Part shown: positions 1-53,544 of the stretch, piece after piece
Numbering within the stretch: position 1 is the first letter of the stretch
How the letters are laid out: every line of letters begins with the position of its first letter
Sequence record: PX441839.1
Direction: 5' to 3' (one strand)
Origin: a phage
DNA length: 64,000 nt
Made by a program: the position numbers and the translations under genes
The notes under the pieces: model-generated
Told to the model about the DNA's origin: nothing
What the model saw: the letters and a program-made list of their open reading frames with translations, nothing else
Databases searched by the model: none

Positions 1-1
1 T

Positions 2-178
2 GTAAACCTGGCGGCAACTGCTACCCTTCCGGCTTATCGTACCCGTGAAGAAGCTCGCGCCGTTGCCAGTAAACTCCGCGCCGCTGGAGTTACCCCAACA
101 ACGCCAGCTAAAACAGTAGAAGGGTGGCGAGTAATGGCTAAACATTCCGGCGGTACGCTCTCAATCAATCGCCATTAA
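2..178 (+). CDS. 3' end of a hypothetical protein truncated by the window start
   Basis: Open frame runs from the window edge to TAA at 176-178. Confidence 0.3.
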   Translation, partial: VNLAATATLPAYRTREEARAVASKLRAAGVTPTTPAKTVEGWRVMAKHSGGTLSINRH

Positions 179-202
179 TACACCTTAGGCCCCAGGCGGG
201 GC

Positions 203-316
203 CTGTTATGTTATCCTGTCCGGCGATCCTTACTTGCTATCCGGTTCAAGTCCGGTTGATTTTCCAGGCGGGGCGGTATGTGAGCGGGTTCAATCCCCGC
301 CAGGATAACATAACAG
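203..316 (+). ncRNA. tRNA-like structured element closed by a perfect 16-bp inverted repeat
   Basis: Arms ctgttatgttatcctg (203-218) and caggataacataacag (301-316) are exact reverse complements. Core has a canonical T-arm (gcggg-ttcaatc-cccgc, 284-300) and an anticodon-like hairpin (ccgg-ttcaagt-ccgg, 241-255). At 97 nt with no clean D-arm it is not a standard tRNA. Confidence 0.35.
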
Positions 317-337
317 AAAACAATCGAGGGTTTACCC

Positions 338-682
338 ATGACCAAACAGATCCACAGTGTACAGATCACGCCGCTTTTCCGTTGCCATATCTTTTATGAC
401 TGCAATGATCTTGCGGGACAATGGATCGGAGATACCGATGATCAATACGATTTTCCCGAATGGGACGAATTAAACAGGCGAGTAAGCAACGCCGCACATA
501 ATGCCGATCCTGATAACCTGGCAGACGTTTCACACTTTCCAGGCGGGGCCGCTTGCTTTCCCTATATCGAAATAACCGCGCCAACGTGGGCGCTATGTAA
601 ATCGATGGGGGACGCCGTGATCCGTTGCATCCTGGATAATGGCGGGATTGTTGAGCCAAAAGATAACGGAATAAATATTTAA
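338..682 (+). CDS. hypothetical early protein (114 aa)
   Basis: Six-frame ORF with a GAGGG RBS before the ATG; no recognisable motif. Confidence 0.4.
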   Translation: MTKQIHSVQITPLFRCHIFYDCNDLAGQWIGDTDDQYDFPEWDELNRRVSNAAHNADPDNLADVSHFPGGAACFPYIEITAPTWALCKSMGDAVIRCILDNGGIVEPKDNGINI

Positions 683-701
683 ATTATTTTCGTTTTAGGT
701 G

Positions 702-730
702 TTGACACCGAGACCGAATAAAAGCATAAT
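702..730 (+). promoter_or_regulatory. sigma70-type early promoter (class I, followed by leader hairpin)
   Basis: TTGACA, 17-bp spacer, CATAAT; the conserved leader cacatagggcgacacaacgtcgccc begins about 5 nt downstream. Confidence 0.6.
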
Positions 731-740
731 GCATCACATA

Positions 741-759
741 GGGCGACACAACGTCGCCC
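741..759 (+). promoter_or_regulatory. conserved 5' leader hairpin (GGGCGAC-acaac-GTCGCCC)
   Basis: 7-bp stem with 5-nt loop right after the -10; near-identical copies at 1118-1136 and 5267-5285, variants at 3515-3537, 7684-7710 and 8830-8860. Confidence 0.55.
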
Positions 760-782
760 ACTAACAAAGAGTGAGACAGTAA

Positions 783-1067
783 ATGATTACATTAAACCGC
801 GATGTTAACGAACAAGTTAAAAACTTTATCCGTCGCCCCCAGGAGTCAGGATACCCGCTAATCCTTGTAATGAAAGATGGTGGTGTGTTGTGTCATGAAT
901 GTGCCAAAAAAGAATTTAAAATGATCATTGCCGATACGCGAGAAGGTTGGAATACAGAATGGACAGCACTTGGAACAGAATTATTTTTAGAGGGTCCTGT
1001 TATTGAGTGTTCTCATTGCTACAAGGATATAGAGAGCGCATACGGCGATCCGAATTCAGAAGAATAA
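783..1067 (+). CDS. small early protein, Cys4 zinc-ribbon-like (94 aa)
   Basis: ORF with promoter, leader hairpin and RBS upstream; Cys pairs C-H-E-C and C-S-H-C. Confidence 0.55.
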   Translation: MITLNRDVNEQVKNFIRRPQESGYPLILVMKDGGVLCHECAKKEFKMIIADTREGWNTEWTALGTELFLEGPVIECSHCYKDIESAYGDPNSEE

Positions 1068-1079
1068 TAAAATAAAGTA

Positions 1080-1108
1080 TTGACAACATAAACAACTTGA
1101 ACGATAAT
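1080..1108 (+). promoter_or_regulatory. sigma70-type early promoter (class I)
   Basis: TTGACA, 17 bp, GATAAT, followed by the conserved leader hairpin at 1118-1136. Confidence 0.55.
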
Positions 1109-1162
1109 GTAACACATAGGGCGACACAACGTCGCCCACTAACAAACTAGTAAGGGTATACA

Positions 1163-1396
1163 ATGAATCTTAATGTTATTGGCGCAAATCAAACGGTTGT
1201 TACTTTTTCAGACAATACTCAATTATTCTATTCTTATAATACCCCAGTGGCTGCTTTTATCCCTGGCGAAGGATACATAGTGACCGCAACAAAGTATAGT
1301 CGTACCACGACACGACACATTAACAACTTTACAGGGGGTTTAGTTGATCGTGTTGAGTCCCAAACATTTTTTGATAATTTAGTAAAAACCGCTTGA
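1163..1396 (+). CDS. hypothetical early protein (77 aa)
   Basis: ORF with own promoter and AGGG RBS. Confidence 0.5.
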   Translation: MNLNVIGANQTVVTFSDNTQLFYSYNTPVAAFIPGEGYIVTATKYSRTTTRHINNFTGGLVDRVESQTFFDNLVKTA

Positions 1397-1430
1397 CGTT
1401 GGTTTATGCCTGGTACATAATACTAGGCAT
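1393..1430 (+). promoter_or_regulatory. sigma70-type early promoter (class II, -10 inside a covarying palindrome)
   Basis: TTGACG, 17 bp, CATAAT; inverted repeat atgcctggta / tactaggcat flanks the -10. Confidence 0.6.
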
Positions 1431-1468
1431 AGGCAAACGAAAGCAGACAACCAAACGAGGGTTACAAA

Positions 1469-1828
1469 ATGACTAACATGATCGCACTGACTGAAAAACG
1501 TAATGCACTGGAAAACATCCTGGCAAAAATCAAAGAGAAGCAAGCAGAAATCGACTCTTTTGAGTACGAGTCCAGCACGTCAGAATATGATGATTATTTG
1601 GACAGTGAAGGGGAAATCACCGTTGCGGGAATGACATTCTGGCCGTCAGATATCCTTAAGAATTGTGATCCTACTGCATACCGTTGCGGGAAAGTGGACT
1701 ATGATTCAAGTAAGGACCTGGATGACGTGGAAGAATACCAGGCGTTACAGGAAGAACTGGAAGAACTGGAAAACGAACGTGACGATCTGGAAAGTGAGAT
1801 CGAAGAACTGGAAGAAGGCGAAGAATAA
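1469..1828 (+). CDS. highly acidic small early protein (119 aa)
   Basis: ORF with class II promoter; C-terminal third is almost entirely Glu/Asp/Leu (EELEELENERDDLESEIEELEEGEE). Confidence 0.55.
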   Translation: MTNMIALTEKRNALENILAKIKEKQAEIDSFEYESSTSEYDDYLDSEGEITVAGMTFWPSDILKNCDPTAYRCGKVDYDSSKDLDDVEEYQALQEELEELENERDDLESEIEELEEGEE

Positions 1829-1833
1829 AAGTA

Positions 1834-1862
1834 TTGACAGGGGCGGTAAAACGCCCCATAAT
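1834..1862 (+). promoter_or_regulatory. sigma70-type early promoter (class III, GGGGCGG/CCGCCCC hairpin in spacer)
   Basis: TTGACA, spacer ggggcggtaaaacgccc, CATAAT; identical copy at 4097-4125. Confidence 0.6.
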
Positions 1863-1892
1863 GACAGGACCAAAACAAAGAGAGTAAAGAAG

Positions 1893-2102
1893 ATGATTAA
1901 CGAAAAACAAATCAATGATATCCGTGACGAAGCCTATCAAGTTGCGATCCGTGACGGTTCCCGCGCCGCCTTTATCTTTGTTACGGATCTTTATCCAGAA
2001 CAGGCAGAAAATATATTGATGCAAGTTTCTGTTTTACTGGAAGCAACAAAGCGCACAAAGTTAAGCAACGGGATCGATAAGTTGGCAAAAACTTTAAAAT
2101 AA
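1893..2102 (+). CDS. hypothetical early protein (69 aa)
   Basis: First ATG downstream of the class III promoter, in frame with listed ORF 1665..2102. Confidence 0.45.
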   Translation: MINEKQINDIRDEAYQVAIRDGSRAAFIFVTDLYPEQAENILMQVSVLLEATKRTKLSNGIDKLAKTLK

Positions 2103-2104
2103 TT

Positions 2105-2143
2105 GTTGACTTTGATTTATGCCGCTGTATAATGGGCGGCATA
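2105..2143 (+). promoter_or_regulatory. sigma70-type early promoter (class II)
   Basis: TTGACT, 17 bp, TATAAT; palindrome atgccgc / gcggcat flanks the -10. Confidence 0.55.
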
Positions 2144-2185
2144 GGTAAGAGAAACAAACACAAACCAAGTAAACAAGGGTGTATC

Positions 2186-2674
2186 ATGAAAATTGAAAAA
2201 TTCAAATCACTGTCTAACTATTCTTCCGACTTGATTGACGGCGTGATCCAAGCTTTTGGGAGTGAAGAATATTTCCTGGAGAGTTTTAGAGATGTTGCTC
2301 GATACGGCGGCGACAAAGGGATCGGTTTCATTTACTACACGGAAACGGACCAATTCTGGAAAGATTTAGGCCCACAAATTAAAGAGATGGTAGAAATAGA
2401 CGCCGAATCTTTCACCGGATCAAATGACTATTACACCGTGTGCGAAATGCTGGCAGGGTTCAAAATCTCAAAACAAAATGATCTTTGTGTTGACAAGTGG
2501 TTAGAGTTCCTATATGGTATCAGCCAGGACGAAGAAAATAGTTTAGATGCCCTTTGTGATGAGTGGGATCAAAATATGGCCCGTTGGGTGCTGGGGGTGT
2601 ATGCCGTTGAACGTGTATCCCAAGATCTGGAAAGTTTAATTGATAACGGGGATATTGACGAGGAAGATGTTTAA
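2186..2674 (+). CDS. hypothetical early protein (162 aa)
   Basis: ATG at 2186 downstream of promoter; the listed start at 2132 lies inside the -10 element. Confidence 0.5.
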   Translation: MKIEKFKSLSNYSSDLIDGVIQAFGSEEYFLESFRDVARYGGDKGIGFIYYTETDQFWKDLGPQIKEMVEIDAESFTGSNDYYTVCEMLAGFKISKQNDLCVDKWLEFLYGISQDEENSLDALCDEWDQNMARWVLGVYAVERVSQDLESLIDNGDIDEEDV

Positions 2675-2985
2675 TGCTAACGTGGATCGTGTTGGCTTTA
2701 TGCGGGGTGGCGGCGATCTTTTGTGTCGCCACACATAAAAAGTACCTTTACAAAAAGGCTGAAAAAGTGTTCGGATACTTTGAGTATGAATATGATGGGG
2801 AGGTTTCCACATCGCGGGACTATGGACCTATGCTTGAAATTGATATGGTGGGCGCTATGCGACACCGCCAGGAGTGTGGCGCACACATAACGTTTAGTCA
2901 TTTTGGAACAGAAGATGAGATTTTCGACATCATAGACAAACGAGAATATTTGCGCCAACAACAAAAAACACGCCGTAAGTTTTAA
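2674..2985 (+). CDS. hypothetical membrane-anchored early protein (103 aa)
   Basis: Start overlaps the upstream stop (TAATG); hydrophobic N-terminal segment. Confidence 0.45.
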   Translation: MLTWIVLALCGVAAIFCVATHKKYLYKKAEKVFGYFEYEYDGEVSTSRDYGPMLEIDMVGAMRHRQECGAHITFSHFGTEDEIFDIIDKREYLRQQQKTRRKF

Positions 2986-3007
2986 TTGAGTAGAGAGAGG
3001 GTTTAAG

Positions 3008-3148
3008 ATGATTGCAACTAATACTAACCGTGACAAAATCAGCCATAAGAACAAATTAAGCTATGGTGAAGCAAAGGAGCGGATCACAGTATCAAAGGCC
3101 AATAAGCAACAACGCCGCAAAACGCGCTATAGCTGGGACAGCTTATAA
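3008..3148 (+). CDS. small basic protein (46 aa), not in the ORF track
   Basis: ATG at 3008 after GAGAGGG RBS; Arg/Lys-rich C-terminus; terminator hairpin follows at 3188-3214. Confidence 0.3.
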   Translation: MIATNTNRDKISHKNKLSYGEAKERITVSKANKQQRRKTRYSWDSL

Positions 3149-3187
3149 AGAGGGGAGGATTGTACCCACACTGATTTAAAACCTTAC

Positions 3188-3214
3188 AGGGGCCTTTATA
3201 GGCCCCTTATTTTT
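3188..3214 (+). terminator. rho-independent terminator
   Basis: aggggcc-tttata-ggcccct followed by a T-run. Confidence 0.5.
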
Positions 3215-3230
3215 GATAAGAGGTATCAAC

Positions 3231-3458
3231 ATGCAGAACATTTTAGGTTTAACTGATTTTATCCGCGCCCTTAAGGGCCGATCGTTGGGTTTTTCTGCCG
3301 TCTATATGGTGCCGGAGGGTAAGACATACAGCCAAGCCGTTAATGGCCTTATAGCAACGGCGGCAAGGGAAAACGTGAAGATCTCCACAGGCCAGATCCT
3401 AGCAGTTGATCCCGCCACATTTGCCACCATAGCGGCGATCAAAGTTACCGTAAAATAA
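3231..3458 (+). CDS. hypothetical early protein (75 aa)
   Basis: ATG at 3231 after AAGAGG RBS. Confidence 0.45.
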   Translation: MQNILGLTDFIRALKGRSLGFSAVYMVPEGKTYSQAVNGLIATAARENVKISTGQILAVDPATFATIAAIKVTVK

Positions 3459-3481
3459 TTTAAAATATTTTGTTTTTGGGT

Positions 3482-3510
3482 GTTGACAGGGGAAAGGGAT
3501 TGCCCCATAA
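3482..3510 (+). promoter_or_regulatory. sigma70-type early promoter (class III + leader hairpin)
   Basis: TTGACA, 17 bp with gggg..cccc, CATAAT; degenerate leader hairpin at 3515-3537. Confidence 0.55.
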
Positions 3511-3574
3511 TACACCACATAGAGCGACACAACGTCGCAAATTAAAACCAACTAACTAAGAGTGAGACAGTAAA

Positions 3575-4093
3575 ATGGGAAGCCCAAACTTTAAAACTTC
3601 AAACGTAAGATTAAACCTTGCATCTTTCCCGTTCAATGATTACAATGATGATGAGGAGATTCAAGAGCAAAACTATGAAGACCACAGTTATTGGGTAGAA
3701 CAGCAATATGAAGCAATGAAAGCGGTTATCGATGAGATTCCTACCCCTGATTTTTGGGATATCCACATCGAAAGCGGCTATCATGAAGGATTCCAGGTAT
3801 ACATTGAAAGTAATTGCGGCGATGATTATCAGGATCAAGTGTTCCAAGATCTTTACCGTTACAATGAGGCTTGCTTGCCGTCAGGTTATCCTTTAAATAT
3901 GCAAGACTTACCTTACGCAAGAAAGGGATCTGTAAACATTACCCCTTTTAATTTGAAATATGCTATTGAAAACGAGTACAAGGCGATCCATAATAAGATT
4001 TTAGCAGCAGCAAAGGAGGCTGGGATCGGTGAAGTGTTCGGATCTTCCTGGTGCTCAAATGTAGGACCTATTGAAAGTAAACTGATTAAATAA
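3575..4093 (+). CDS. hypothetical early protein (172 aa)
   Basis: ORF with promoter and leader upstream; acidic N-terminal region. Confidence 0.55.
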   Translation: MGSPNFKTSNVRLNLASFPFNDYNDDEEIQEQNYEDHSYWVEQQYEAMKAVIDEIPTPDFWDIHIESGYHEGFQVYIESNCGDDYQDQVFQDLYRYNEACLPSGYPLNMQDLPYARKGSVNITPFNLKYAIENEYKAIHNKILAAAKEAGIGEVFGSSWCSNVGPIESKLIK

Positions 4094-4096
4094 ATG

Positions 4097-4125
4097 TTGA
4101 CAGGGGCGGTAAAACGCCCCATAAT
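4097..4125 (+). promoter_or_regulatory. sigma70-type early promoter (class III)
   Basis: Identical to the promoter at 1834-1862. Confidence 0.6.
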
Positions 4126-4156
4126 GACAAGACCAAAACAAAAAGAGAAAGAAACA

Positions 4157-4309
4157 ATGAAACACTATCTAGTTAATATACCTGGTGTTGCGGGACCGCT
4201 CAAAGTTTACGGGTACGACGAAAAGGACGCAAGAAAGCGCCTACGTGATCGGGAAGGGTACAGAAAACGCCTACCCAATGGCACAAAACTTTATTTAAAA
4301 ACAGCTTGA
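4157..4309 (+). CDS. small basic protein (50 aa)
   Basis: First ATG after the promoter; listed ORF 4094..4309 begins inside the promoter. Confidence 0.4.
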   Translation: MKHYLVNIPGVAGPLKVYGYDEKDARKRLRDREGYRKRLPNGTKLYLKTA

Positions 4310-4345
4310 CGTTAGGTTATGCCGCCCCTATAATGGACGGCATAG
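4306..4345 (+). promoter_or_regulatory. sigma70-type early promoter (class II)
   Basis: TTGACG, 17 bp, TATAAT; palindrome atgccgcc / ggacggcat around the -10. Confidence 0.55.
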
Positions 4346-4375
4346 GCAAACGAAAGAAAACTAAGGTGATTCATT

Positions 4376-4648
4376 ATGAAAAGTAAACTGTCAAGAGAAG
4401 AAATTAGTCAAGTGTTATCTTTCAACATGCAAGACTGGAAAGAAAACGCCGACATTTGCGAAGCTCAAGATCTTAACGAAGAATTAACAATTGACGAAAT
4501 AAGCATTGTGTGCTCACCTGATTTTTATGATGAGTTGCACGAAAAAGATGATCTTTTTAACGTCCTGGAGAATAATTTCATGGATACCGATTTATGTGTG
4601 TACAGTATCGATACTTTTATTCTTATCCATAACATATACAACAACTAA
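4376..4648 (+). CDS. hypothetical acidic early protein (90 aa)
   Basis: ORF with promoter and RBS. Confidence 0.5.
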   Translation: MKSKLSREEISQVLSFNMQDWKENADICEAQDLNEELTIDEISIVCSPDFYDELHEKDDLFNVLENNFMDTDLCVYSIDTFILIHNIYNN

Positions 4649-4664
4649 AGGAAAGGGCCGCATT

Positions 4665-4955
4665 ATGTTTGAAGTATTCGCCGGAATGTGTTTTTATGGT
4701 GCTATGGCATTGCGTCAATGTGAAGATTACACCGTTGAAGTGTATCATGATCCCTTATCTTGCGAGATCGTGGCGCAAGATTACCGACAGGATAAACGCT
4801 GGCTTAATCCTCAGTGTATCCCATCGCCGGAGGTTGAACCAATGCCAGAAGGTGAAGCCCTGGAAGGTGAGGAGATCCGCGCCGTTGTTAGCTATATGCT
4901 AGATAACTTAAACGCCGATCAGCTTGTTTCTATGTATGCAGAAACAGAAAAATAA
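4665..4955 (+). CDS. hypothetical early protein (96 aa)
   Basis: ATG at 4665 after AAAGGAAAGGG RBS, in frame with listed ORF 4506..4955. Confidence 0.45.
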   Translation: MFEVFAGMCFYGAMALRQCEDYTVEVYHDPLSCEIVAQDYRQDKRWLNPQCIPSPEVEPMPEGEALEGEEIRAVVSYMLDNLNADQLVSMYAETEK

Positions 4956-4958
4956 TTG

Positions 4959-4999
4959 TTGACGTTGGTTTATGCCGTCGCATATAATAGACGGCATAG
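4959..4999 (+). promoter_or_regulatory. sigma70-type early promoter (class II)
   Basis: TTGACG, 18 bp, TATAAT; palindrome atgccgtcg / cgacggcat around the -10. Confidence 0.55.
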
Positions 5000-5031
5000 G
5001 CAAACGAAACAAACCATAAAAGGGTTACAAA

Positions 5032-5223
5032 ATGAAATCATCTTTACTTTTTTGCACTGTAAACATCATCATTGGTAACGGTTGCGGATCTCATGAATTT
5101 ATTAAGGGCAAGCCTTACAGCCTTTCATCGCTGCAAGCTGATTTTCGTTTATTGCCAGGACAGATCCGCAAATACTTTCGCGCCCCGTATCCAAAAGGAT
5201 ATAAAACAAATTTAGCAAAATAA
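5032..5223 (+). CDS. hypothetical early protein (63 aa)
   Basis: ORF with promoter and RBS. Confidence 0.4.
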   Translation: MKSSLLFCTVNIIIGNGCGSHEFIKGKPYSLSSLQADFRLLPGQIRKYFRAPYPKGYKTNLAK

Positions 5224-5227
5224 AGTA

Positions 5228-5256
5228 TTGACAAGGGGCACAGATTACCCCATAAT
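5228..5256 (+). promoter_or_regulatory. sigma70-type early promoter (class III + leader hairpin)
   Basis: TTGACA, 17 bp with gggg..cccc, CATAAT; leader hairpin at 5267-5285. Confidence 0.55.
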
Positions 5257-5307
5257 GTAACACATAGGGCGACACAACGTCGCCCACTAACAAAAGAGAT
5301 AAACAAA

Positions 5308-5592
5308 ATGATCAAGGCAAACAACTTTTTCTTCCTGGCTAACGTAGCGGATCACATCGTGGCAGAATTTAGAAACGTGGATGCAACAGCATTTATAAAA
5401 ATGCGTCATGAAAAAGACGTTTCAACGGATCGCGTAGAAATGGAAGTTACCCGCCACGGCAAAGAGTTTAAAATCAAATATCTGATTATCGTAAATAATG
5501 CAACATTTAGCGAGGGAACCAGCGAACCGATCCCGGACAATATGATCCAGCAAGTGATCGCCGCCGTTGCTAACGGATCAATTTTACCTTAA
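5308..5592 (+). CDS. hypothetical early protein (94 aa)
   Basis: ORF with promoter and leader. Confidence 0.5.
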   Translation: MIKANNFFFLANVADHIVAEFRNVDATAFIKMRHEKDVSTDRVEMEVTRHGKEFKIKYLIIVNNATFSEGTSEPIPDNMIQQVIAAVANGSILP

Positions 5593-5599
5593 AAAGTTG

Positions 5600-5640
5600 T
5601 TGACGTTGGTTTATGTGGGGCGTATAATTCCCCACATAGA
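5600..5640 (+). promoter_or_regulatory. sigma70-type early promoter (class II)
   Basis: TTGACG, 17 bp, TATAAT; palindrome atgtggggcg / ccccacat around the -10. Confidence 0.55.
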
Positions 5641-5661
5641 CAAACGAAACGAGAGATTAAA

Positions 5662-5868
5662 ATGTACACCATGATCGCACTTGCAGTATACTTCCTTTCA
5701 TCTTGCATTTACATTATGTTGGCGCTTGCCTTCCCTGGTGAGTTGGTTTATAGTTTTATGGGCGTAGATCTTGTTTTATGGGCGGTCGCCACGCCACTGA
5801 TGATCGTTCCCGCCGTGATCATTTATTGGATTGAAGAAAAGATTACTGATTTGCTAAAAGGCTATTGA
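5662..5868 (+). CDS. small integral membrane protein (68 aa)
   Basis: ORF with two predicted hydrophobic helices. Confidence 0.45.
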   Translation: MYTMIALAVYFLSSCIYIMLALAFPGELVYSFMGVDLVLWAVATPLMIVPAVIIYWIEEKITDLLKGY

Positions 5869-5926
5869 CAAGGCAACCACAAACAAAGATAATAGCCTCA
5901 TTGAAAACAACTAGTAAGGATTTACG

Positions 5927-6079
5927 ATGTATAAGCTGTTAACCTGGGAACATGAGACAAGCCAACCGATTAGCCGTGACTTTTTCGATTTGTGCGCCGC
6001 TTACCGACTGGCAAAAGGCGGTTACTATAAAGCCCAAATCATTGATGAAAATAATGTTGTACTTTATGAGTTTAAATGA
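5927..6079 (+). CDS. small protein (50 aa), not in the ORF track
   Basis: ATG at 5927 after AAGGA RBS; followed by hairpin gcgccccgaaaggggcg at 6087-6103. Confidence 0.3.
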   Translation: MYKLLTWEHETSQPISRDFFDLCAAYRLAKGGYYKAQIIDENNVVLYEFK

Positions 6080-6133
6080 TTAACAAGCGCCCCGAAAGGG
6101 GCGATAATTACCACACAAAACAGGAGACAGTAA

Positions 6134-6376
6134 ATGAAAGTTCAAAATGTATTGATTTGTGAAGATTGCGCCTTGTACCTTAATACAGGTGAGCTTCCCG
6201 CTGATACCACACCAGAAGATGATCAGGACATCATCCACGGGGCGGAATATCTAGATATAACTTACAAATTTGGGAGTGTAGGCACTAGTTTAGGCTTTTC
6301 AATAAAACCGTGTGAATGTTGCGGATCTCGCCTGGCCGGAGATCGCTATGAATATGATAATCTTGGCTTAAAATAG
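6134..6376 (+). CDS. small zinc-ribbon protein (80 aa)
   Basis: CEDC ... CECCG Cys pairs; GGAGA RBS. Confidence 0.5.
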   Translation: MKVQNVLICEDCALYLNTGELPADTTPEDDQDIIHGAEYLDITYKFGSVGTSLGFSIKPCECCGSRLAGDRYEYDNLGLK

Positions 6377-6536
6377 TAGTTGACTACAACGAAAGAAAAG
6401 AATACTATGTATCACATGAAAGGCAAACAGCCTAAACCAACAAAGAGAGAAACAAAATGAGCGTAGTATTCTTAATTTCAGTTTTCGTAGCTATCGCCGC
6501 TTCAACCGCAATTTGTGTAAAATTAGGATGGTAAGA

Positions 6537-6932
6537 ATGGAAAGTGTAAAAGATACCCTGTTAAATGCTTTTTTGTCCGGCGCTACTGAGGCGTTATTGT
6601 TCGCAGAATCCGCAGAAGATGCAAACGGGGAGACAATCGAACATTTGAACGGTTACGAATTAAGCAATGCAAGCAAAGCACTGTTAAAACTGGAATCTGT
6701 TAAATTCTTAGATTTAGGAAACAACTTAATAGAAAAAGCTATTGACAGTAGCGGCGATTTATACGATTATACTCAAGCGGGGCGGGATTTTTGGTTTACT
6801 CGTCAAGGTCACGGCGTAGGATTCTGGGATCGGGGTCTTGGGGAAGTTGGGGACCAGCTAACAGAACTTTCAAAATGTTTCGGTGAGCGCTGGATCTCTT
6901 TGAATGAAAATAATTTTGTAGAGGTTGAATGA
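6537..6932 (+). CDS. hypothetical protein (about 131 aa; start uncertain)
   Basis: In frame with listed ORF 6513..6932; ATG at 6537 has an AGGA RBS. Confidence 0.45.
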   Translation: MESVKDTLLNAFLSGATEALLFAESAEDANGETIEHLNGYELSNASKALLKLESVKFLDLGNNLIEKAIDSSGDLYDYTQAGRDFWFTRQGHGVGFWDRGLGEVGDQLTELSKCFGERWISLNENNFVEVE

Positions 6933-7276
6933 TGGCTGAAAAATTCTCAATAACTCAAAAGACAATTTACACCATTAAAAGCAAACACGGCGTTATTGAG
7001 TGTGAAGGGATAGCAGGACTAGAAAAGCACGTAGAGGAAACATTAGGCGCTTTTGTTGACAACATGCACGGCAACCATACAGGACTAAGATCAAAAGATC
7101 GGATCAATGATTATGATTACCTGTTAGAGAATCGCCAGGACTTAGAAACAATTTTCGCCCTTATGGATGCCGTTAAGGATCTGAAAAATCCACCATCGCC
7201 GGATCACGATTGTGATGATTATTATTGTAACCGTTGCGGATCTGGATCGGCCATTGAATACGTAGGAAATAATTAA
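6929..7276 (+). CDS. hypothetical protein with C-terminal Cys cluster (115 aa)
   Basis: Start overlaps the upstream stop; CDDYYCNRCG motif. Confidence 0.5.
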   Translation: MMAEKFSITQKTIYTIKSKHGVIECEGIAGLEKHVEETLGAFVDNMHGNHTGLRSKDRINDYDYLLENRQDLETIFALMDAVKDLKNPPSPDHDCDDYYCNRCGSGSAIEYVGNN

Positions 7277-7278
7277 CA

Positions 7279-7500
7279 ATGCAAACTAAAAACCTGTTAG
7301 GAAAATCTGATTTTTTAAGAGCGCTCGCGCCTGGCGAATCGGCGGTATGGAACGTGCAAGGGAAAGATGTAGAAAAGGAAATGCGCCTGTTTACTGCTAC
7401 CGCTTGCCGCCTGGCAGTGACTATCACACAAAGGGCCGCTTTAATTGTTTTGGCTGATAACTTGCCCTTACATTGTGTAATCGTGACTAAGGTTAAGTGA
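7279..7500 (+). CDS. hypothetical protein (73 aa)
   Basis: Abuts the upstream gene. Confidence 0.45.
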   Translation: MQTKNLLGKSDFLRALAPGESAVWNVQGKDVEKEMRLFTATACRLAVTITQRAALIVLADNLPLHCVIVTKVK

Positions 7501-7511
7501 ATGACAATAAC

Positions 7512-7555
7512 AGGCCCAAATAGTGAACGTATGGCGCTATAAGGGCCTTTTTGGT
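7512..7555 (+). terminator. rho-independent terminator
   Basis: aggccc ... gggcct stem followed by ttttt. Confidence 0.45.
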
Positions 7556-7646
7556 AAGAGGTAAGGCAATCAGGCACTAAAGCCTAAAAATTCAATACAG
7601 ACCCTTACAGGGCCTCACATCAAAAATAAAAATCATCTTAAAAGTG

Positions 7647-7675
7647 TTGACTCTTAAATTACTTTTCGGTATCTT
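7647..7675 (+). promoter_or_regulatory. putative sigma70-type promoter with variant leader hairpin
   Basis: TTGACT, 17 bp, TATCTT; leader variant gggcggcaatggtgccaaggccc at 7684-7710. Confidence 0.4.
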
Positions 7676-7728
7676 TTACCACGTAGGGCGGCAATGGTGC
7701 CAAGGCCCACAACTTAGGAGCCAGTAAG

Positions 7729-7983
7729 ATGACAACTTTCAAACACGTAATTTCTGTAAATACTGCTATCCTTGGCGGCGTGGAACGTGATAAAGCTTTT
7801 TATTCAAAGTATATCGGTGATTCATGTTTTAACTACTGGGGCATGAAGATGTCAGAAGTTCGCCGGATACTGGGATTCGGTAATACTGGCCGTAAAGTTA
7901 TTTCGGGCGATATCGCCAGAACTTTAAACGTAGGCTATGACATCGCCAAGAAAATTCTTTCCGATGTAGAAAAATCACTCTAA
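7729..7983 (+). CDS. hypothetical protein (84 aa)
   Basis: ORF with RBS; hairpin ggccccgaaaggggcc follows at 7991-8006. Confidence 0.5.
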   Translation: MTTFKHVISVNTAILGGVERDKAFYSKYIGDSCFNYWGMKMSEVRRILGFGNTGRKVISGDIARTLNVGYDIAKKILSDVEKSL

Positions 7984-8184
7984 TCATTAAGGCCCCGAAA
8001 GGGGCCAACATGCAAAGGGAATAGTAGTGATTTACTTTAAAAATGTTGAAACGGGCCGATTCTACCGCTTTAAAAATAGCCGTGTTTTGTTCCACATTGC
8101 TGGATTGTGGCGCATCAGCGACACATACAGACCCGCCGATCTTACGGGTTATCCTTTCATAGCTGTAAATATGGGACCATCATT

Positions 8185-8376
8185 ATGACCACAGAAAGCG
8201 ACATCAGACAAGCCCTGGCCGCTATGCGTTATCACCATAGATTAAAGAGCAGTGATCCAGGTTACGCCGGATCAACCTTTGAGAGGGATACCATAGAGGG
8301 GATCGCCACACTTAAGAACCTTATGGACCGTATGAGGGACAGCAACAGATCCGACTTTTTAGGGGAGGAGATTTAA
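8185..8376 (+). CDS. hypothetical protein (about 63 aa; start uncertain)
   Basis: Internal ATG of listed ORF 8107..8376. Confidence 0.35.
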   Translation: MTTESDIRQALAAMRYHHRLKSSDPGYAGSTFERDTIEGIATLKNLMDRMRDSNRSDFLGEEI

Positions 8377-8404
8377 TTTATCGGACCATAACCACTGGAT
8401 GTAA

Positions 8405-8440
8405 AAACAGGTTGATTTGGTCGGCCTGTTTTGTTATCTT
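8405..8440 (+). terminator. rho-independent terminator
   Basis: aacagg ... cctgtt stem followed by ttttgtt. Confidence 0.45.
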
Positions 8441-8795
8441 ATTTAGACGGCGGGCACCTGGGGACAGGGGGAGACAAACACCGGACCTGCCTGTTATTCA
8501 GGTTGACTTACCGGACCTGGGCCACGTTCTGCAAATGAAAATGGTTATCATTCCCAATAAAATCAAATACATACTTTCAAACCGTTGTCAAATTTATTTC
8601 ATACTACTGTATAAATATACATGGCCCTAAAACGCCCTGAATCGCGTTTTAAGCCGTTTTACCCTGAATCCTTACCCTACATCATTAAAAAATAGATCTC
8701 GCGAAATCGGACTTTCGCACTTTTTGCCCTTGCAAACATGAAAATTTTATGCTAGATGAGTTGGTTGGAATTGACAAAACTTTACAATCCCCCTA

Positions 8796-8824
8796 TTGAC
8801 GGCAAGCCCAGAAAAGCCTATTAT
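8796..8824 (+). promoter_or_regulatory. sigma70-type promoter with variant leader hairpin
   Basis: TTGACG, 17 bp, TATTAT, then cacatagggcggcaatggtgcgacggccc. Confidence 0.45.
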
Positions 8825-8876
8825 TTATCACATAGGGCGGCAATGGTGCGACGGCCCACAAAGAGGAGACCGTAAA

Positions 8877-9020
8877 ATGAACCTGACTAACTTTAACCGC
8901 TACTACATCCGCGACGAACAAGCTAACGCTTTCGGTTATGACCGCACCGCTGAAGCCGCTGAAAAGCAACATAAAATTTTCATCCGTTGGATTGCAGACT
9001 ATAAAAAGGCCCGCGCTTAA
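8877..9020 (+). CDS. small protein (47 aa)
   Basis: ATG at 8877 after AAGAGGAG RBS; the listed start at 8796 lies inside the promoter. Confidence 0.4.
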   Translation: MNLTNFNRYYIRDEQANAFGYDRTAEAAEKQHKIFIRWIADYKKARA

Positions 9021-9265
9021 TGTATCGCCTTTTTAAAATCAACCTTCCATTGTGGGCCGCTTTAGCGGTCCCCATTGCCTTTTCTGGTGATGCCTTAAAC
9101 AATTGGATTCTTTCCGCTGTACTTGGACCGGATCAAATAGTCGCAACATGCTTAAATGTTTTAAGTGCTACACTGGCAACTTCCCGCCTTGCCTACCGTG
9201 GCAAATCAATAAACCGTTATGATCTGGCGCTATCATTACCCGCTCTAATAACCTGCCTTAACTAA
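9020..9265 (+). CDS. hypothetical hydrophobic protein (81 aa)
   Basis: Start overlaps the upstream stop; last gene of the plus-strand early block. Confidence 0.4.
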   Translation: MYRLFKINLPLWAALAVPIAFSGDALNNWILSAVLGPDQIVATCLNVLSATLATSRLAYRGKSINRYDLALSLPALITCLN

Positions 9266-9272
9266 AAGACAC

Positions 9273-9299
9273 CCGCCCCACCCGGCGGGCTTTTCTTTT
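9273..9299 (+). terminator. rho-independent terminator ending the plus-strand early block
   Basis: cccgcc-ccaccc-ggcggg stem followed by cttttctttt. Confidence 0.55.
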
Positions 9300-9597
9300 G
9301 TCCCAAACGTGGCAAGCCAGAACATCCCGATCCGGTATCGGTCCTACTCCCCCAGCACATCCCCTTATCACCTCACCTGTTAAAATCAACTCATAATTTT
9401 ATTCACTTTAAGATGCATAATTGAATAAACGGCCCCAGGGTATAACGGCAAGGGTAAACAATTGCGACCAGTGTGGAGCGTTACAGCGAGTTTTAGACCC
9501 TATTGACTTCTATTTGCAAACGTGTATCAAGCCATAACTAACTAAAATCACCTTTTATTTACATAACTTGACACTACCTATTCACTTATCTGCATAT

Positions 9598-9616
9598 GAG
9601 AATGATTATCATTAAC
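9598..9616. repeat. near-palindromic AT-rich box gagAATGATTATCATTaac (copy 1 of 3-5)
   Basis: Further copies at 10005-10018 and 10201-10214, degenerate copies at 8540-8552 and 9927-9939; resembles the Fur-box consensus GATAATGATAATCATTATC. Confidence 0.45.
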
Positions 9617-9675
9617 TAAATCATACACTTACCACATACAAGTAAACAAATCAATAATAAATAAAAATTGCCTTT

Positions 9676-9860
9676 CACGTTCCCACGGATCAAGGGAGGG
9701 CGCGCCGGAGGCGCGACCTATAGAAAACAGGTAACGAATCAACCCCCGTTGCTAACTCGCAACGGTTTTTGCTTACGTTCCCACGGTCAAGGGATGACCG
9801 CTTATTAGCTACGCTAACCGCTAACATCCTTTAACCGCTTTAACCTGTTTTCTATAGGTC
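9676..9860 (+). repeat. composite structured element: direct repeats, 16-bp inverted repeat and internal terminator
   Basis: Direct repeats (c/t)acgttcccacgg(a)tcaaggga at 9676-9697 and 9774-9794; inverted repeat cctatagaaaacaggt (9717-9732) / acctgttttctatagg (9843-9858); internal hairpin ccgttgc-taactc-gcaacgg + ttttt at 9745-9770. Confidence 0.45.
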
Positions 9861-10512
9861 TTTTTTATGTGTAAATTCCATAAAGTCAAGGGCTTTTATC
9901 AAGTAATTTTCATAATTTTACTGAATGAGAATGCTTATCTTTTGCATATGTAGGCGTAAATTAGCGTAAACAGGCGGACCTGTAAGGACCTGTTAGGGCC
10001 TATAGGATGATTATCATTGCGTATAAAGTAATCAATTAGGGGGTAGTAATGCCTACTTTTGCCTTATTTTGCCTGACCAGAAACGGTCTTCTCTGTCAAC
10101 CAAAAGATAAATTTTTAGCACAAAATGTAAGTGGCCCAAATGAGAACTATTCTCAAAGTAGAGTAATTCCCAAATGTTAATGAGTCTCACCTCAATTGTG
10201 GAATGATTATCATTAAGTCCAGTGTTGGCGGGACCTGGAGCAGGACGGGTAAGCCAGTGCGTATAAGGTATTTTATGTTAAATGGTCAAAAAGTGGGCGT
10301 AGGCACAGTCTCACCGATGAGTCAAGTAATAAACTGTAAATGTGGGACAAAAGCCCGTAATTGTTGGGGAAAGAATCAAACATTTTCGAAGGTAGGGGCG
10401 GCTACCGCCAGCGACAACGGGCAAGCGGGGAAAGGGTAAGTTATTGTTTTTACTGGATATTTGGGAAAGATCGGCCCCATATGTGAGGGGTAACTCAGGG
10501 GTGCCTGGCACC

Positions 10513-11052: not shown

Positions 11053-11334
11053 TTAGAGGTAATCCTCTAATAGCTCCAGCCAGAAGCCACTTTGGTCCTT
11101 TCTGGTGTGACTCTGTGGCCCATTATCGTGGATGAGATAGATGTTTCCATCAACCCCTTCGAAGATTCTCATTTTGGCATCCACGTACAAATACCTCAGT
11201 TCTTTCTGGCTGTACCCATATGTGGGATAATTCTGGGATGTCATGCGACCTCCCACAAAAGGGTGAGGGATATGGTTATGGCTATGACAGCAAGCAGCAC
11301 AAGCCATTTGGTTATGTACTCCTTGTGGGTCCAC
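11053..11334 (-). CDS. hypothetical protein (93 aa), last gene of the minus-strand block
   Basis: Six-frame ORF; Cys/His-rich N-terminus. Confidence 0.45.
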   Translation of the reverse strand: MDPQGVHNQMACAACCHSHNHIPHPFVGGRMTSQNYPTYGYSQKELRYLYVDAKMRIFEGVDGNIYLIHDNGPQSHTRKDQSGFWLELLEDYL

Positions 11335-52138: not shown

Positions 52139-52173
52139 TCTTAATACATAGCCCGTAAGGAATTGCGGGATTG

Positions 52174-52249
52174 CCGATTTAGCTCAGTTGGTAGAGCGCT
52201 TCACTTGTAATGATGATGTCGCAGGTTCGAGTCCTGCAATCGGCACCAG
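52174..52249 (+). tRNA. tRNA-Thr (anticodon UGU)
   Basis: Manual cloverleaf: acceptor gccgatt/aatcggc, D-arm gctc-agttggta-gagc, T-arm gcagg-ttcgagt-cctgc, CCA encoded; one U-U mismatch in the anticodon stem. Confidence 0.7.
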
Positions 52250-52254
52250 ATAAG

Positions 52255-52328
52255 GCCCAATAGCTCACTGGTGAGAGCCAACCCCTCATAAGGGTTAGGG
52301 CGGGGATCGTAACCCCGGTGGGCCACCA
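52255..52328 (+). tRNA. tRNA-Met (anticodon CAU; initiator, elongator or Ile-lysidine not distinguished)
   Basis: Acceptor ggcccaa/gtgggcc, anticodon arm aaccc-ctcataa-gggtt, CCA encoded. Confidence 0.75.
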
Positions 52329-52347
52329 ACCAAAGAGAGAATTTAGC

Positions 52348-52426
52348 GCGGGTGTATCTCATCCGTCTTCTAAACGGACGTTAACCGAGTAATTGGAGTA
52401 TGGGGGTTCGAATCCCTCCACCCGCG
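52348..52426 (+). tRNA. atypical tRNA-like gene with anticodon-type hairpin UCU (Arg?)
   Basis: Canonical T-arm ggggg-ttcgaat-ccctc and acceptor gcgggtg/cacccgc, but no D-arm, a 23-nt extra segment, no CCA, and the acceptor extends to a perfect 16-bp stem (52339-52354 / 52419-52434). Confidence 0.4.
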
Positions 52427-52450
52427 CTAAATTCTTTTGAGGTGTAAAAA

Positions 52451-52966
52451 TTGCTAAACTTGAAAAATCAAAATATAGATAAAGGCACGGGATATTTATA
52501 CGTGTACGATCCAAGTCACCCAATGGCAAATAAGTCTGGAAAGGTTTATGTTCACAGGTATGTTGCAGAGACGGGGTTTGGTATAAAACTAACACCTGAC
52601 CTGATAGTTCACCACAAGGATGAGAATAAGCTAAACAACGAGCTAACAAATCTCGAAGTTATGACTTATTCTGAACATGCCCGTCACCACCACGGGGCGG
52701 ATTTTGTAGAATGTGTATGCAAGACCTGTGGCAATGTAACTTTGAGGAGGCCCTCGGAAGTTGTATCATTTTGTTCACACAAGTGCTCAACAACATTCAG
52801 AAGGAAATTTGAAATCTCTCCTCAAGAGTTGCAGGATTTGGTTTGTAACTACCCAGTTAGTGTTATTGCAAAGATGTTTGGGGTTAGTGATACAGCAATA
52901 CACAAGAAATGTAAAACCCTAGGGATTAAAAAGATGCCGAAAGGATTCTTTTTAAGACTCCCTTGA
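52451..52966 (+). CDS. HNH homing endonuclease
   Basis: YVHRYVAE ... IVHHKDENKLNNELTNLEVMTYSEHARHH is a classic HNH motif; C-terminal Cys cluster and HTH-like region. Confidence 0.7.
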   Translation: MLNLKNQNIDKGTGYLYVYDPSHPMANKSGKVYVHRYVAETGFGIKLTPDLIVHHKDENKLNNELTNLEVMTYSEHARHHHGADFVECVCKTCGNVTLRRPSEVVSFCSHKCSTTFRRKFEISPQELQDLVCNYPVSVIAKMFGVSDTAIHKKCKTLGIKKMPKGFFLRLP

Positions 52967-52998
52967 CATAGGTAATTGATCCTGATAAGATAATTACA

Positions 52999-53397: not shown

Positions 53398-53428
53398 GAC
53401 CCTTCGGGGTCTTTGAGTTTTCTTTTGA
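53398..53428 (+). terminator. rho-independent terminator
   Basis: gaccc-ttcg-gggtc followed by tttgagttttctttt. Confidence 0.5.
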
Positions 53429-53457
53429 CGATTATTTTCGTACAAAAGAGAATTTAA

Positions 53458-53544
53458 GCCAGGTTATACCGTAGGGGTAGCGGAGGAGACTGTAAATCTC
53501 TGGTCATTGCGACTCGGGTGGTTCGACGCCATCACCTGGCACCA
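53458..53544 (+). tRNA. tRNA-Tyr (anticodon GUA), type II
   Basis: Acceptor gccaggt/acctggc, anticodon arm ggaga-ctgtaaa-tctct, long variable arm, CCA encoded. Confidence 0.7.

Follow-up and report, generated by a model that had tools for sequence, protein, structure and literature searches.

Why should an early phage promoter carry its −10 hexamer in the loop of an inverted repeat, when the arms of that repeat differ from one copy to the next and still remain complementary? The question is raised by a stretch of 64,000 nucleotides (sequence record PX441839.1, taken as a whole and called here the window), which comes from a Vequintavirinae phage, rV5-like, and shares 97% identity with Salmonella phage SSBI34 in bases 1-4964. 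Its early array is a tandem series of small genes, all in one orientation. Intergenic space is about zero, and some stop codons lie within a −35 box. Canonical terminators with T-runs are rare (186-205 and 3188-3207). With co-oriented genes and so few such terminators, read-through from one gene into the next is to be expected.

Promoters of the early array

Five promoters, family A in what follows, had been listed in a preliminary description. All are present on the + strand, at 1393, 2106 (not 2105), 4306, 4959 and 5600, and the half-sites quoted for them are complementary as claimed, with one G·T in the copy at 1393 and one C·A in that at 4306.

1391..1444, + strand: family A cassette 1; −35 TTGACG at 1393-1398, −10 CATAAT at 1416-1421 in the loop; probable start near A1429; folding −30.3 kcal/mol, z −6.3; stop codon of the upstream gene (TGA, 1394-1396) inside the −35 box, next gene from 1469
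2104..2156, + strand: family A cassette 2; −35 TTGACT at 2106-2111, −10 TATAAT at 2128-2133; folding −25.9 kcal/mol, z −4.6; the T of TTGACT paired with the A of AGAAA, a covarying outer pair
4304..4357, + strand: family A cassette 3; −35 at 4306-4311, −10 TATAAT at 4329-4334; z −2.7; inner stem with one C·A mismatch; upstream stop codon (TGA, 4307-4309) inside the −35 box
4957..5011, + strand: family A cassette 4; −35 at 4959-4964, −10 TATAAT at 4983-4988; folding −28 kcal/mol, z −6.3; collinearity with SSBI34 ends exactly at its −35 box
5598..5651, + strand: family A cassette 5; −35 at 5600-5605, −10 TATAAT at 5623-5628; folding −25.6 kcal/mol, z −5.5; inner arms TGGGG/CCCCA, both sides altered with respect to the other copies

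With up to three mismatches allowed, the 16-mer TTGACGTTGGTTTATG occurs five times against 0.59 expected, a number reached by none of 100 shuffles. A covariance model built from relatives recovers the same five copies, and no further one over the 64 kb. Each is a near-consensus sigma-70 promoter (10-11 of 12 positions matched, spacer of 16-18 nt) with its −10 hexamer in the hairpin loop, and the five intergenic regions give RNA folding z-scores of −2.7 to −6.3.

Relative to the −35 and −10 boxes, stem-loops are placed in three ways, which define families A, B and C. In family B a hairpin of 6-7 bp lies in the spacer; the four copies noted previously are there, one of them displaced by a base (3483, not 3482), and a fifth, at 6080, had gone unlisted. 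The third kind is a hairpin of the 5′UTR.

1834..1862, + strand: family B promoter; hairpin GGGGCG-GTAAAA-CGCCCC fills the 17-bp spacer, its final C being the first base of CATAAT; z −3.8
3483..3511, + strand: family B promoter; weaker GGGG...CCCC spacer hairpin, then a 5′UTR hairpin at 3522-3538
4097..4125, + strand: family B promoter; core identical to the copy at 1834; z −4.1
5228..5256, + strand: family B promoter; GGGG...CCCC spacer hairpin, z −4.5, then a 5′UTR hairpin at 5267-5285
6080..6108, + strand: family B-like promoter; TTAACA, hairpin GCGCCCC-GAAA-GGGGCG, GATAAT; z −3.8
741..759, + strand: 5′UTR hairpin GGGCGAC-ACAAC-GTCGCCC, directly after the start site of promoter 702; identical copies at 1119-1137 and 5267-5285, variant at 3522-3538

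Spacer hairpins recur in relatives: of 155 distinct promoters, 73 contain one that folds at −6 kcal/mol or below, whereas shuffled spacers do so in 15% of cases. The stems comprise many different sequences. Within the window, a hairpin (z −2.9 or lower) accompanies 12 of the 15 promoters of the array, and none of the 10 sigma-70-like promoters located outside it (z between −1.5 and +1.2). The latter lack the hairpin, which is therefore no component of promoter function in general.

Base pairing and the strand that folds

The inverted repeat of family A begins 2 nt before the −35 box and ends near +18, which makes some 55 bases. It makes a stem of about 21 bp in three helices, with 1x1 and 2x1 internal loops between them (−25 to −30 kcal/mol). 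The preliminary description had placed the hairpin in the variable half-sites. It is real, but not confined there: the flanks GTTGGTTTATG and CATAGGCAAACGAAA, then taken as fixed, themselves form the outer stem. TATG pairs with CATA, GTT with GGC or GAC through U·G pairs, the C-N-N-N of the −35 region with the N-N-N-G before AAA, and the TT of TTGAC with AA; outermost, the two bases 5′ of TTGAC pair with the two bases 3′ of CGAAA.

Covariation was analysed in 38 distinct family A copies from relatives – related copies, so that the counts of cells given here are not counts of independent events. In the alignment fitted to the model, 92.5% of cells pair, versus 34-41% when partner columns are slid; a gapless MAFFT alignment, not fitted to structure, gives 92.4% versus 32-39%. 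Half-sites do vary, as had been proposed, with their complementarity kept. Both sides have changed at 12 of the 17 pairs (107 cells in the 38 copies), and the observed covariation score is reached by none of 500 shuffles. Base 6 of the −35 box pairs with the base before GAAA in all 38 copies (GC 31, UA 5, AU 2), while the base before TTGAC makes a standard pair with the fourth base after the G of GAAA in 39 cases out of 39, mainly C-G (19) or G-C (17). At least 15 arm sequences stay complementary, outer part included, for example TGTAGGTCC/GGGCCTACA and AATGTGTGGG/CCTACACATT. The earlier reading of compensatory change is thereby supported: it is base pairing that is under selection in this hairpin, not a fixed protein-binding sequence.

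Which molecule folds can be read from the cells that are not Watson-Crick pairs. On the + (sense) strand they comprise 81 G·U and 6 A·C, or 36 and 5 without two near-invariant columns. Column shuffles give expected counts of 45 for G·U and 26 for A·C. Only A·C falls short of these, by a factor of five, which indicates that it has been removed by selection and G·U tolerated. Folded as RNA, the + strand averages −21.7 kcal/mol versus −16.2 for the − strand (5.5 better), and it is the more stable of the two in 35 of the 38 copies (Wilcoxon p = 2e-7). Folded as DNA, both strands can form hairpins (−9 to −16 kcal/mol, z between −3.9 and −5.5), the + strand being better by just 1-3 kcal/mol. A cruciform predicts no strand bias, because both of its strands must pair. 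The G·U bias and the asymmetry of the strands therefore favour an RNA hairpin in read-through transcripts over a symmetric DNA cruciform, with the proviso that G·T is the least disruptive mismatch in DNA and that a single-stranded DNA hairpin of the + strand would give a similar bias.

A proposed composite of promoter and stem-loop

The closest known system is the PeSL (promoter-early stem-loop) cassette of the T4-type phages RB49 and phi1. On balance, we regard family A as probably a cassette of this type, the RNA hairpin of which bounds or protects the 3′ end of the upstream message. As DNA, it would be a strong sigma-70 early promoter: an A-rich tract on the upstream side, then TTGAC and TATAAT about 17 bp apart, and a start predicted at the A of CATAG. 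When transcribed, these 55 nt would fold into the long imperfect hairpin (about 21 bp), whose loop holds the −10 hexamer. Both arms would be found only in transcripts arriving from the promoter of the upstream gene, and the cassette's own transcript would start within the 3′ arm. The hairpin might in this way mark the upstream message's 3′ boundary and protect it: it could attenuate read-through, stop 3′ exonucleases or do both, each small early gene of the tandem array then being expressed as its own unit. That a boundary hairpin and the next promoter should share bases would follow from the near absence of intergenic space. More broadly, the role of the hairpin in RNA could be attenuation, 3′-end protection or RNase processing. 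A terminator scan finds no T-run after the family A hairpins on the + strand, which sets them outside the sequence rule for intrinsic terminators; ordinary terminators are used elsewhere by the phage.

PeSL cassettes are described in the T4-type phages RB49/phi1, PST/T4 and nt-1/KVP40 (Arbiol et al., 2010, PMC2839356; Comeau et al., 2014, PMC4122927). In those of RB49 and phi1, an AT-rich region with the upstream stop codon is followed by a sigma-70 promoter, the stem-loop lying between −35 and −10 or overlapping the −10. G-T pairs are noted in the stems. The stem-loops are read there as terminators or attenuators, and one of them reduced lacZ expression as strongly as rrnB T1 (PMC2839356). 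Compared directly, the RB49 sequences have the same layout as ours, one copy with its −10 inside the hairpin. The two systems share the AT-rich tract with its stop codon, a near-consensus sigma-70 early promoter, G-T pairs in the stem and, immediately 3′ of the cassette, a Shine-Dalgarno sequence followed by a start codon. Where the stem-loop is nested between the two boxes it corresponds to family B, of the same Gn-loop-Cn form; where it overlaps the −10, to family A; and where it comes just after the start, to the 5′UTR hairpins. In both, cassettes are concentrated among small genes of unknown function and bound gene indels between close relatives, and the short words AAAAAGTTGTTGAC, ACACATA and AAACGAA are common to them.

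There are also differences. The lineage here is Vequintavirinae and Stephanstirmvirinae, not Straboviridae, and there is no BLAST-level homology to RB49. The family A stem of about 21 bp surrounds the whole promoter, from −37 to +18, whereas the RB49 stem has 6-8 bp; it has no T-rich tail, whereas the RB49 copy with its −10 in the hairpin continues with TTTTCTG. Terminator and promoter activities were measured for RB49; here they are predicted from sequence. Quantified covariation or strand bias is absent from the available text of PMC2839356 and PMC4122927. Family A may thus be seen as the “promoter plus stem-loop” design of PeSL in a new phage group, and in a larger form.

The promoters themselves have been met before. 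Buttimer et al. (2020, PMC7344957) describe for Certrevirus a sigma-70-like early promoter, AAAA(N3-4)TGTTGAC(N17-19)TATAAT, of which a genome has 13-21 sites, grouped where short hypothetical genes lie; according to that paper, related phages encode no RNA polymerase. The Certrevirus promoters are those described here, and the phage group is the same one. A term search of PMC7344957 finds no stem-loop, hairpin or palindrom-, and the embedded hairpin appears not to have been noted previously for this phage group in the searchable literature.

Alternative readings and gene indels

A different use of the same RNA hairpin is conceivable: a nuclease specific for double strands, whether the host's RNase III or an enzyme of the phage, might process the RNA there. 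The early region of phage T7 has long imperfect intergenic RNase III hairpins of comparable size between co-transcribed genes, and these sites contain no promoters. Here also long imperfect hairpins lie between early genes that are probably co-transcribed, but family A holds a promoter and cleavage is putative. A cut in the stem would divide a polycistronic early transcript into its cistrons, leaving a protective 3′ stem on the upstream piece and a downstream 5′ end near the cassette's own start. Three helices and about 21 bp, at −25 to −30 kcal/mol, match RNase III substrates in size and far exceed the 6-8 bp of a simple exonuclease block or of RB49-type stem-loops. The lack of a termination T-run and the sense-strand G·U bias agree with this too. 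We nevertheless hold nuclease processing to be rather unlikely: family B hairpins, with their 6-7 bp, are too short for RNase III, so that one mechanism would not cover both families, and the published PeSL assay was interpreted as termination (PMC2839356).

The preliminary description had proposed a hairpin or cruciform that could be switched by supercoiling or by a phage factor at the early-to-middle transition. On that model, negative supercoiling would extrude the repeat in the DNA, as a cruciform or as a hairpin of the non-template strand, exposing or hiding the −10, with activity governed by topology or by such a factor. The −10 hexamer does sit in the loop throughout, both DNA strands fold, and DNA hairpins tolerate G·T. 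Hairpin promoters dependent on supercoiling exist in phage N4, the early promoters of which have stems of 5-7 bp and 3-nt loops, lack −35 and −10 boxes, and are read by the phage (virion) RNA polymerase on supercoiled DNA. Promoter-associated hairpins of variable stem sequence are common to both cases, but the elements studied here are sigma-70 consensus promoters. The strand data lend the switch no support, the excess of G·U over A·C and the 5.5 kcal/mol asymmetry being unexpected for a two-stranded cruciform. Furthermore, the perfect core of the stem is only 8-11 bp, and with loops of 5-10 nt and internal mismatches it is poorly suited to extrusion; sigma-70-like promoters outside the array work without a hairpin signal; and three stem-loop placements fit an RNA element for which any position between genes would do, rather than a device that works on the −10. 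We consider such a switch improbable.

Still less probable, indeed very doubtful, is an antisense terminator, with a hairpin followed within 2-4 nt by a five-T run on the − strand. The upstream A-tracts (aaaaaccgc, aaaataattg, aaaaacagc, aaaaagttg) do give − strand T-runs at the hairpin base, but G·U becomes an A·C mismatch on that strand, chiefly in the part of the lower stem that adjoins the T-run, folding is weaker there in those 35 of 38 copies, the terminator scan has none of the family A hairpins on that strand, and no promoter pointing into the array was identified. The A-tract, found likewise in RB49 PeSLs, is more simply explained as the UP element of the promoter, as in the Certrevirus reading (PMC7344957). 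Finally, an operator at which a dimeric phage or host repressor would shut off the early promoters, suggested by a dyad centred on the −10 and by outer half-sites TATGCC/GGCATA common to many copies, is barely credible, since half-sites are not conserved, the covariation of at least 15 arm sequences that keep complementarity is a strong counter-argument, and tolerating G·U but not A·C would be senseless for a protein reading duplex DNA.

The promoter/stem-loop cassette that we prefer may have a further consequence, its conserved sequence offering short homology for the gain and loss of promoter-plus-gene modules. Between the window and SSBI34, both local promoter-plus-gene indels have their junctions at −35 boxes, where direct repeats of that region (TTGTTGACG, and TTAAAATAnTnGTTGACT) enclose them.

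Early promoters enclosed in hairpins

From window position 1 to about 9000, small genes of unknown function form an array with a single orientation, and those that flank its promoter cassettes all code for small, hypothetical proteins. Over positions 1-4964 the sequence is 96.9% identical to that of Salmonella phage SSBI34 (Vequintavirinae), while the Certrevirus phages CR3, phiTE, P7_Pc and F1M1E are more distant matches. The likely early region of Certrevirus is described as rich in sigma-70-like promoters with the consensus AAAA(N3-4)TGTTGAC(N17-19)TATAAT (PMC7344957), and the array considered here is its counterpart. Elsewhere on the + strand, at 52173-54361, ten tRNA genes are clustered (Thr, Met, Tyr, Ser, Asn, Asp, Ile, Pro, Gln, Gly).

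Promoters, hairpins and stops of the early array (window coordinates, + strand)
1393, 2106, 4306, 4959, 5600: family A, promoter within a hairpin whose loop holds the -10 hexamer; sites of the 16-mer TTGACGTTGGTTTATG with at most three mismatches (0.59 expected by chance)
1834, 3483, 4097, 5228: family B, promoter with a hairpin in the spacer between -35 and -10
6080: one further family B copy
741-759, 1119-1137, 5267-5285: identical 19-nt hairpins, GGGCGAC-ACAAC-GTCGCCC, directly after the conserved CACATAG start region
3522-3538: variant of this 19-nt hairpin
near 8830: related form of the same hairpin
1394-1396, 4307-4309, 5866-5868: TGA stops of upstream genes, inside -35 hexamers (TTGACG or TTGACA)
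186-205, 3188-3207: true terminators picked up by a terminator scan

The preliminary description, made from the sequence alone, had recognized the five family A promoters and the second family, and both are there: all copies match the sigma-70 consensus at 10-11 of 12 positions, with spacers of 16-18 nt. It had also noticed, correctly, that the arms on either side of the -10 hexamer are complementary. The hairpin itself, by contrast, is far larger than it had reported, and folding places in the helix the GTTTATG and CATAGGC stretches that it had taken for constant flanks. Each of the five intergenic stretches with a family A promoter folds into one long imperfect hairpin (-20 to -30 kcal/mol, z -2.7 to -6.3). 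This hairpin extends from two bases before the -35 box to some 18 nt past the transcription start, as placed from spacing and from the conserved CATAG; a literature search returned no transcriptome or start-site map for Vequintavirinae. From the outside inwards, it comprises a helix of NN-TT paired with AA-NN, a small internal loop where the GA of TTGAC lies opposite a single A, a second helix that pairs C-N-N-N with N-N-N-G, a 1x1 mismatch, and an inner helix of about 13 bp, taking in GTTTATG, CATAGGC and the variable half-sites, which is capped by the loop with the -10 hexamer.

Intergenic space is minimal. The 12 nucleotides upstream of the promoters are A-rich, and the upstream gene stops 0-6 nt ahead of the -35 box or within it; with a TGA inside the -35 hexamer, coding sequence and promoter overlap. 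Beyond the end of the cassette the next ATG follows after 13-32 nt, preceded by a purine-rich stretch (e.g. GAGGG, AAGGG). The stem-loop takes three placements relative to the promoter, around the -10 hexamer (family A), within the spacer (family B) or just past the start site (the repeated GGGCGACACAACGTCGCCC); the constant feature is a hairpin between two co-transcribed genes rather than a fixed position on the promoter. A significant hairpin lies between about -40 and +20 at 12 of the 15 early-array promoters (z of -2.9 or lower), whereas none was seen at ten sigma-70-like promoters checked elsewhere in the window (z -1.5 to +1.2; Mann-Whitney p = 0.001, 15 vs 10 promoters). Another kind of arrangement is found on the - strand at 34485, where the TTGACA of a sigma-70-like promoter is followed by the palindrome ATATGTCAA and, after the -10 hexamer, by a third GTCAAC (TTGACATATGTCAACAGTTGCGTATAATAGTCAACACA); there is no significant fold there (z +0.5), and a protein might bind to this repetition of -35-like words.

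Covariation across relatives

Copies of the family A cassette were gathered from IMG/VR and GenBank phage records, among them SSBI34, CR3, phiTE, P7_Pc, F1M1E, several uncultivated contigs, a 4MG-like contig, Serratia phage Kashira, Escherichia phage A7_1 and Citrobacter phage Tr1. Copies are thus present on both sides of a subfamily border, Tr1 being assigned to Stephanstirmvirinae. When IMG/VR was scanned with exact and gapped patterns, nearly all matches were due to chance, and a single new relative (L028) was gained. A search with the flanks only gave 36 distinct copies. A covariance model gave 42 matches, 38 of them distinct and exactly five in the window, at a threshold of 1e-9; at E <= 1, reverse-strand matches to the palindrome were mixed in. 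Rfam 15 covariance models, run against both strands of window 1-10000, found no match at E <= 1.

A MAFFT alignment of all copies set the inner arms out of register, and it was replaced by anchor-based counting and by gapless ten-sequence and model-fitted alignments. The gapless alignment of ten copies of equal length was made without reference to a structure; in it 92.4% of cells pair, against 32-39% when the partners are slid, and none of 500 column shuffles reached the observed covariation. The model-fitted alignment of 38 copies has 92.5% of its cells paired, with changes on both sides in 12 of 17 pairs (107 cells) and up to four Watson-Crick types at one position, counts which, the copies being related, overstate the number of independent events. 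Anchor-based counting, which uses no alignment program, gives the same picture. Covariation extends to the outermost pairs: the last base of the -35 box tracks the base before GAAA (TTGACG...CGAAA, TTGACT...AGAAA, TTGACA...TGAAA) and pairs with it in 38/38 copies, and the base before TTGAC forms a standard pair with the base four positions past the G of GAAA in 39/39. Complementarity is therefore kept as the half-sites vary in this larger set of homologues, just as the preliminary description had claimed for the window copies. Base pairing is under selection, and a fixed protein-binding site is excluded.

Two details of individual copies may be set beside these counts. In SSBI34, the cassettes at 7393-7442 and 11235-11284 are identical over 50 nt though other copies differ widely, which suggests a recent duplication or gene conversion between cassettes. 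In Citrobacter phage Tr1 (5264-5313) and relative L038 (7241-7289), the -10 (TAAGCT) or the -35 (TTGTCT) is weakened and the hairpin intact, a hint that the stem is kept independently of promoter quality.

The folded molecule and its possible role

Most probably the element works as RNA and is not a switch in the DNA. The cassette's own transcript, with its start placed as said, would begin within the 3' arm, so that both arms would be present only in RNA coming from upstream. On balance we favour the view that the hairpin would form, in the sense strand, when RNA reads through from an upstream promoter, that it would mark or shield the boundary of the upstream message, that it would share its bases with the next promoter for lack of space, and that the conserved cassette would serve as a recombination site as well. 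The 19-nt hairpin after the start site would make a stem both in read-through RNA and at the 5' end of the transcripts that start just before it. Spacer hairpins, with many different complementary stems, are present at 73 of the 155 distinct promoters of relatives, and family B hairpins frequently carry GNRA-type tetraloops (GAAA, GCAA), which suit RNA.

How such a hairpin might act is a further matter. For family A, three modes of action fit: it could stop 3' exonucleases, cause pausing or attenuation, or be cut by a double-strand-specific RNase. It is an unlikely intrinsic terminator of the classical kind, to judge from its sequence: a scan for GC-rich hairpins followed by a T/U run listed no hairpin of family A or B on the + strand, where family A has no T-run and nothing but the -10 hexamer (AUAAU) comes after the family B hairpin. 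Cleavage of the family A RNA hairpin by an enzyme of the RNase III type is a possibility to which we give a low probability; the hairpin has about 21 bp and two small internal loops, and substrates of that enzyme are mostly double-stranded RNA of at least about 20 bp, in many cases interrupted by an internal loop. Somewhat more speculative is a dual use, where a double-strand-specific nuclease would cut read-through RNA in the 3' arm, beside the cassette's own start; in a second version, a + strand hairpin on single-stranded non-template DNA would gate the firing of the promoter. Should the nuclease version be true, each early gene would yield the same mature mRNA from its own or from an upstream promoter, and the released upstream message would retain a protective 3' stem. 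In either version, the cassette would regulate in a way that has not been reported of the PeSLs (promoter-early stem-loops) of T4-type phages discussed below.

The preference for RNA comes from the asymmetry between strands. Among non-Watson-Crick cells, read on the + strand, G·U outnumbers A·C by 81 to 6. Leaving aside two nearly invariant U·G columns, the counts are 36 and 5, where composition-preserving column shuffles predict 45 and 26: mutation bias was considered as an origin of the surplus of G·U, and base composition alone does not account for it; A·C being far below prediction, selection appears to remove A·C and to tolerate G·U in both orientations. Predicted RNA folds average -21.7 kcal/mol for the + strand and -16.2 for the - strand, the former being more stable in 35/38 copies; with DNA parameters both strands fold, the + strand better by 1-3 kcal/mol in all five window copies. 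Such a bias is expected of sense-strand RNA or, less probably, of single-stranded + strand DNA. It disfavours the cruciform switched by supercoiling or by a phage factor, which had been proposed in the preliminary description: a two-stranded structure asks for symmetric pairing on both strands and predicts no strand bias, which makes it improbable here. Of the earlier interpretation, then, the structural element survives, through covariation, and the DNA switch keeps little weight. A terminator for antisense transcription is suggested by the A-tracts upstream of -35 (1381-1392, 2094-2105, 4296-4305, 4947-4958, 5590-5599), which amount to a T5 run after the hairpin on the - strand, but the stems of that strand carry A·C mismatches, and we judge it quite unlikely. 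A palindromic operator for a dimeric DNA-binding protein is rejected, as half-sites are not conserved and pairs change on both sides through several Watson-Crick types.

Kinship with PeSL cassettes and gene exchange

Work on phages RB49 and phi1 describes the PeSL as an AT-rich region that holds the stop codon of the preceding gene, then a strong sigma-70 promoter, together with a stem-loop that in many cases has the form Gn-loop-Cn, contains G-T pairs, and lies mostly between -35 and -10 or overlaps -10 (PMC2839356). The same work reports, for RB49 PeSL211/210, terminator or attenuator activity in a lacZ assay (PMC2839356). PeSLs are concentrated among small variable genes and mediate gene shuffling through recombination, according to two accounts (PMC2839356; PMC4122927). 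Every sequence-level PeSL feature looked for was found in the window: a near-consensus sigma-70 early promoter, an A-rich tract with the upstream stop before -35, a stem-loop that encloses or overlaps -10 (A), sits in the spacer (B) or lies downstream (5'UTR hairpins), a purine-rich Shine-Dalgarno stretch and ATG at the 3' end, a location among small genes of unknown function, and gene indels relative to SSBI34 bounded by cassettes. Indeed, on the reverse strand of RB49 (112000-128000) we see cassettes of the same layout, one with -10 inside the hairpin followed by TTTTCTG. They also share words with the window promoters, namely AAAAAGTTGTTGAC (upstream tract and -35), ACACATA (start site) and AAACGAA (leader), which could reflect convergence on a strong promoter design or an old exchange of cassettes.

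The differences are of lineage and of size. PeSLs were described in T4-type myoviruses, whereas the window belongs to Vequintavirinae, with copies in Stephanstirmvirinae too, and RB49 and the window phage are of different families; when one family B cassette and family A were compared with all phages by BLAST, neither RB49 nor any other T4-type phage was among the matches, and sequence therefore gives no ground for calling the PeSLs homologous. In contrast to PeSLs, the stem of family A encloses the whole promoter and lacks a T-run after it. Family A belongs to a published kind of element, in a larger form and in a new phage lineage. The nesting of a promoter in a stem-loop, which until now had been reported from T4-type phages, recurs in rV5-like and phi92-like phages and so may be a general answer to the dense packing of small early genes, in which each gene would carry, in the same 55 bases, the signal for its own start and a boundary for the gene upstream. 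With 12 covarying pairs and a sense-strand signature, family A is a natural data set for asking what the stem-loop does, and a clean test case, since RNA polymerase recognition and RNA pairing act together as constraints on a single DNA sequence. Its covariance model could annotate such elements in related genomes.

Two promoter-plus-gene cassettes differ between SSBI34 and the window, both flanked by direct repeats of the -35 region, and on the strength of these two indel events the cassettes appear to be crossover points for the swapping of early genes. Many of these genes are likely to act in host takeover or anti-defence, so that cassette swapping bears on the evolution of the accessory gene set of these therapy-relevant phages. 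Another segment, at 165-335, is shared only with SSBI34 and absent between conserved genes in CR3, phiTE, F1M1E and P7_Pc. There, the terminator-like hairpin at 186-205 is followed by a perfect 16-bp inverted repeat (205-220 / 301-316); this repeat closes off some 80 nt of inserted sequence, in which there are two hairpins like tRNA T-arms (GGTTCAAGTCC, GGTTCAATCCCC). It has neither a tRNA call nor an Rfam match; its RNA folds at -61.5 kcal/mol (z -2.9), and it may represent a small RNA not yet recognized, or what is left of a mobile insert.
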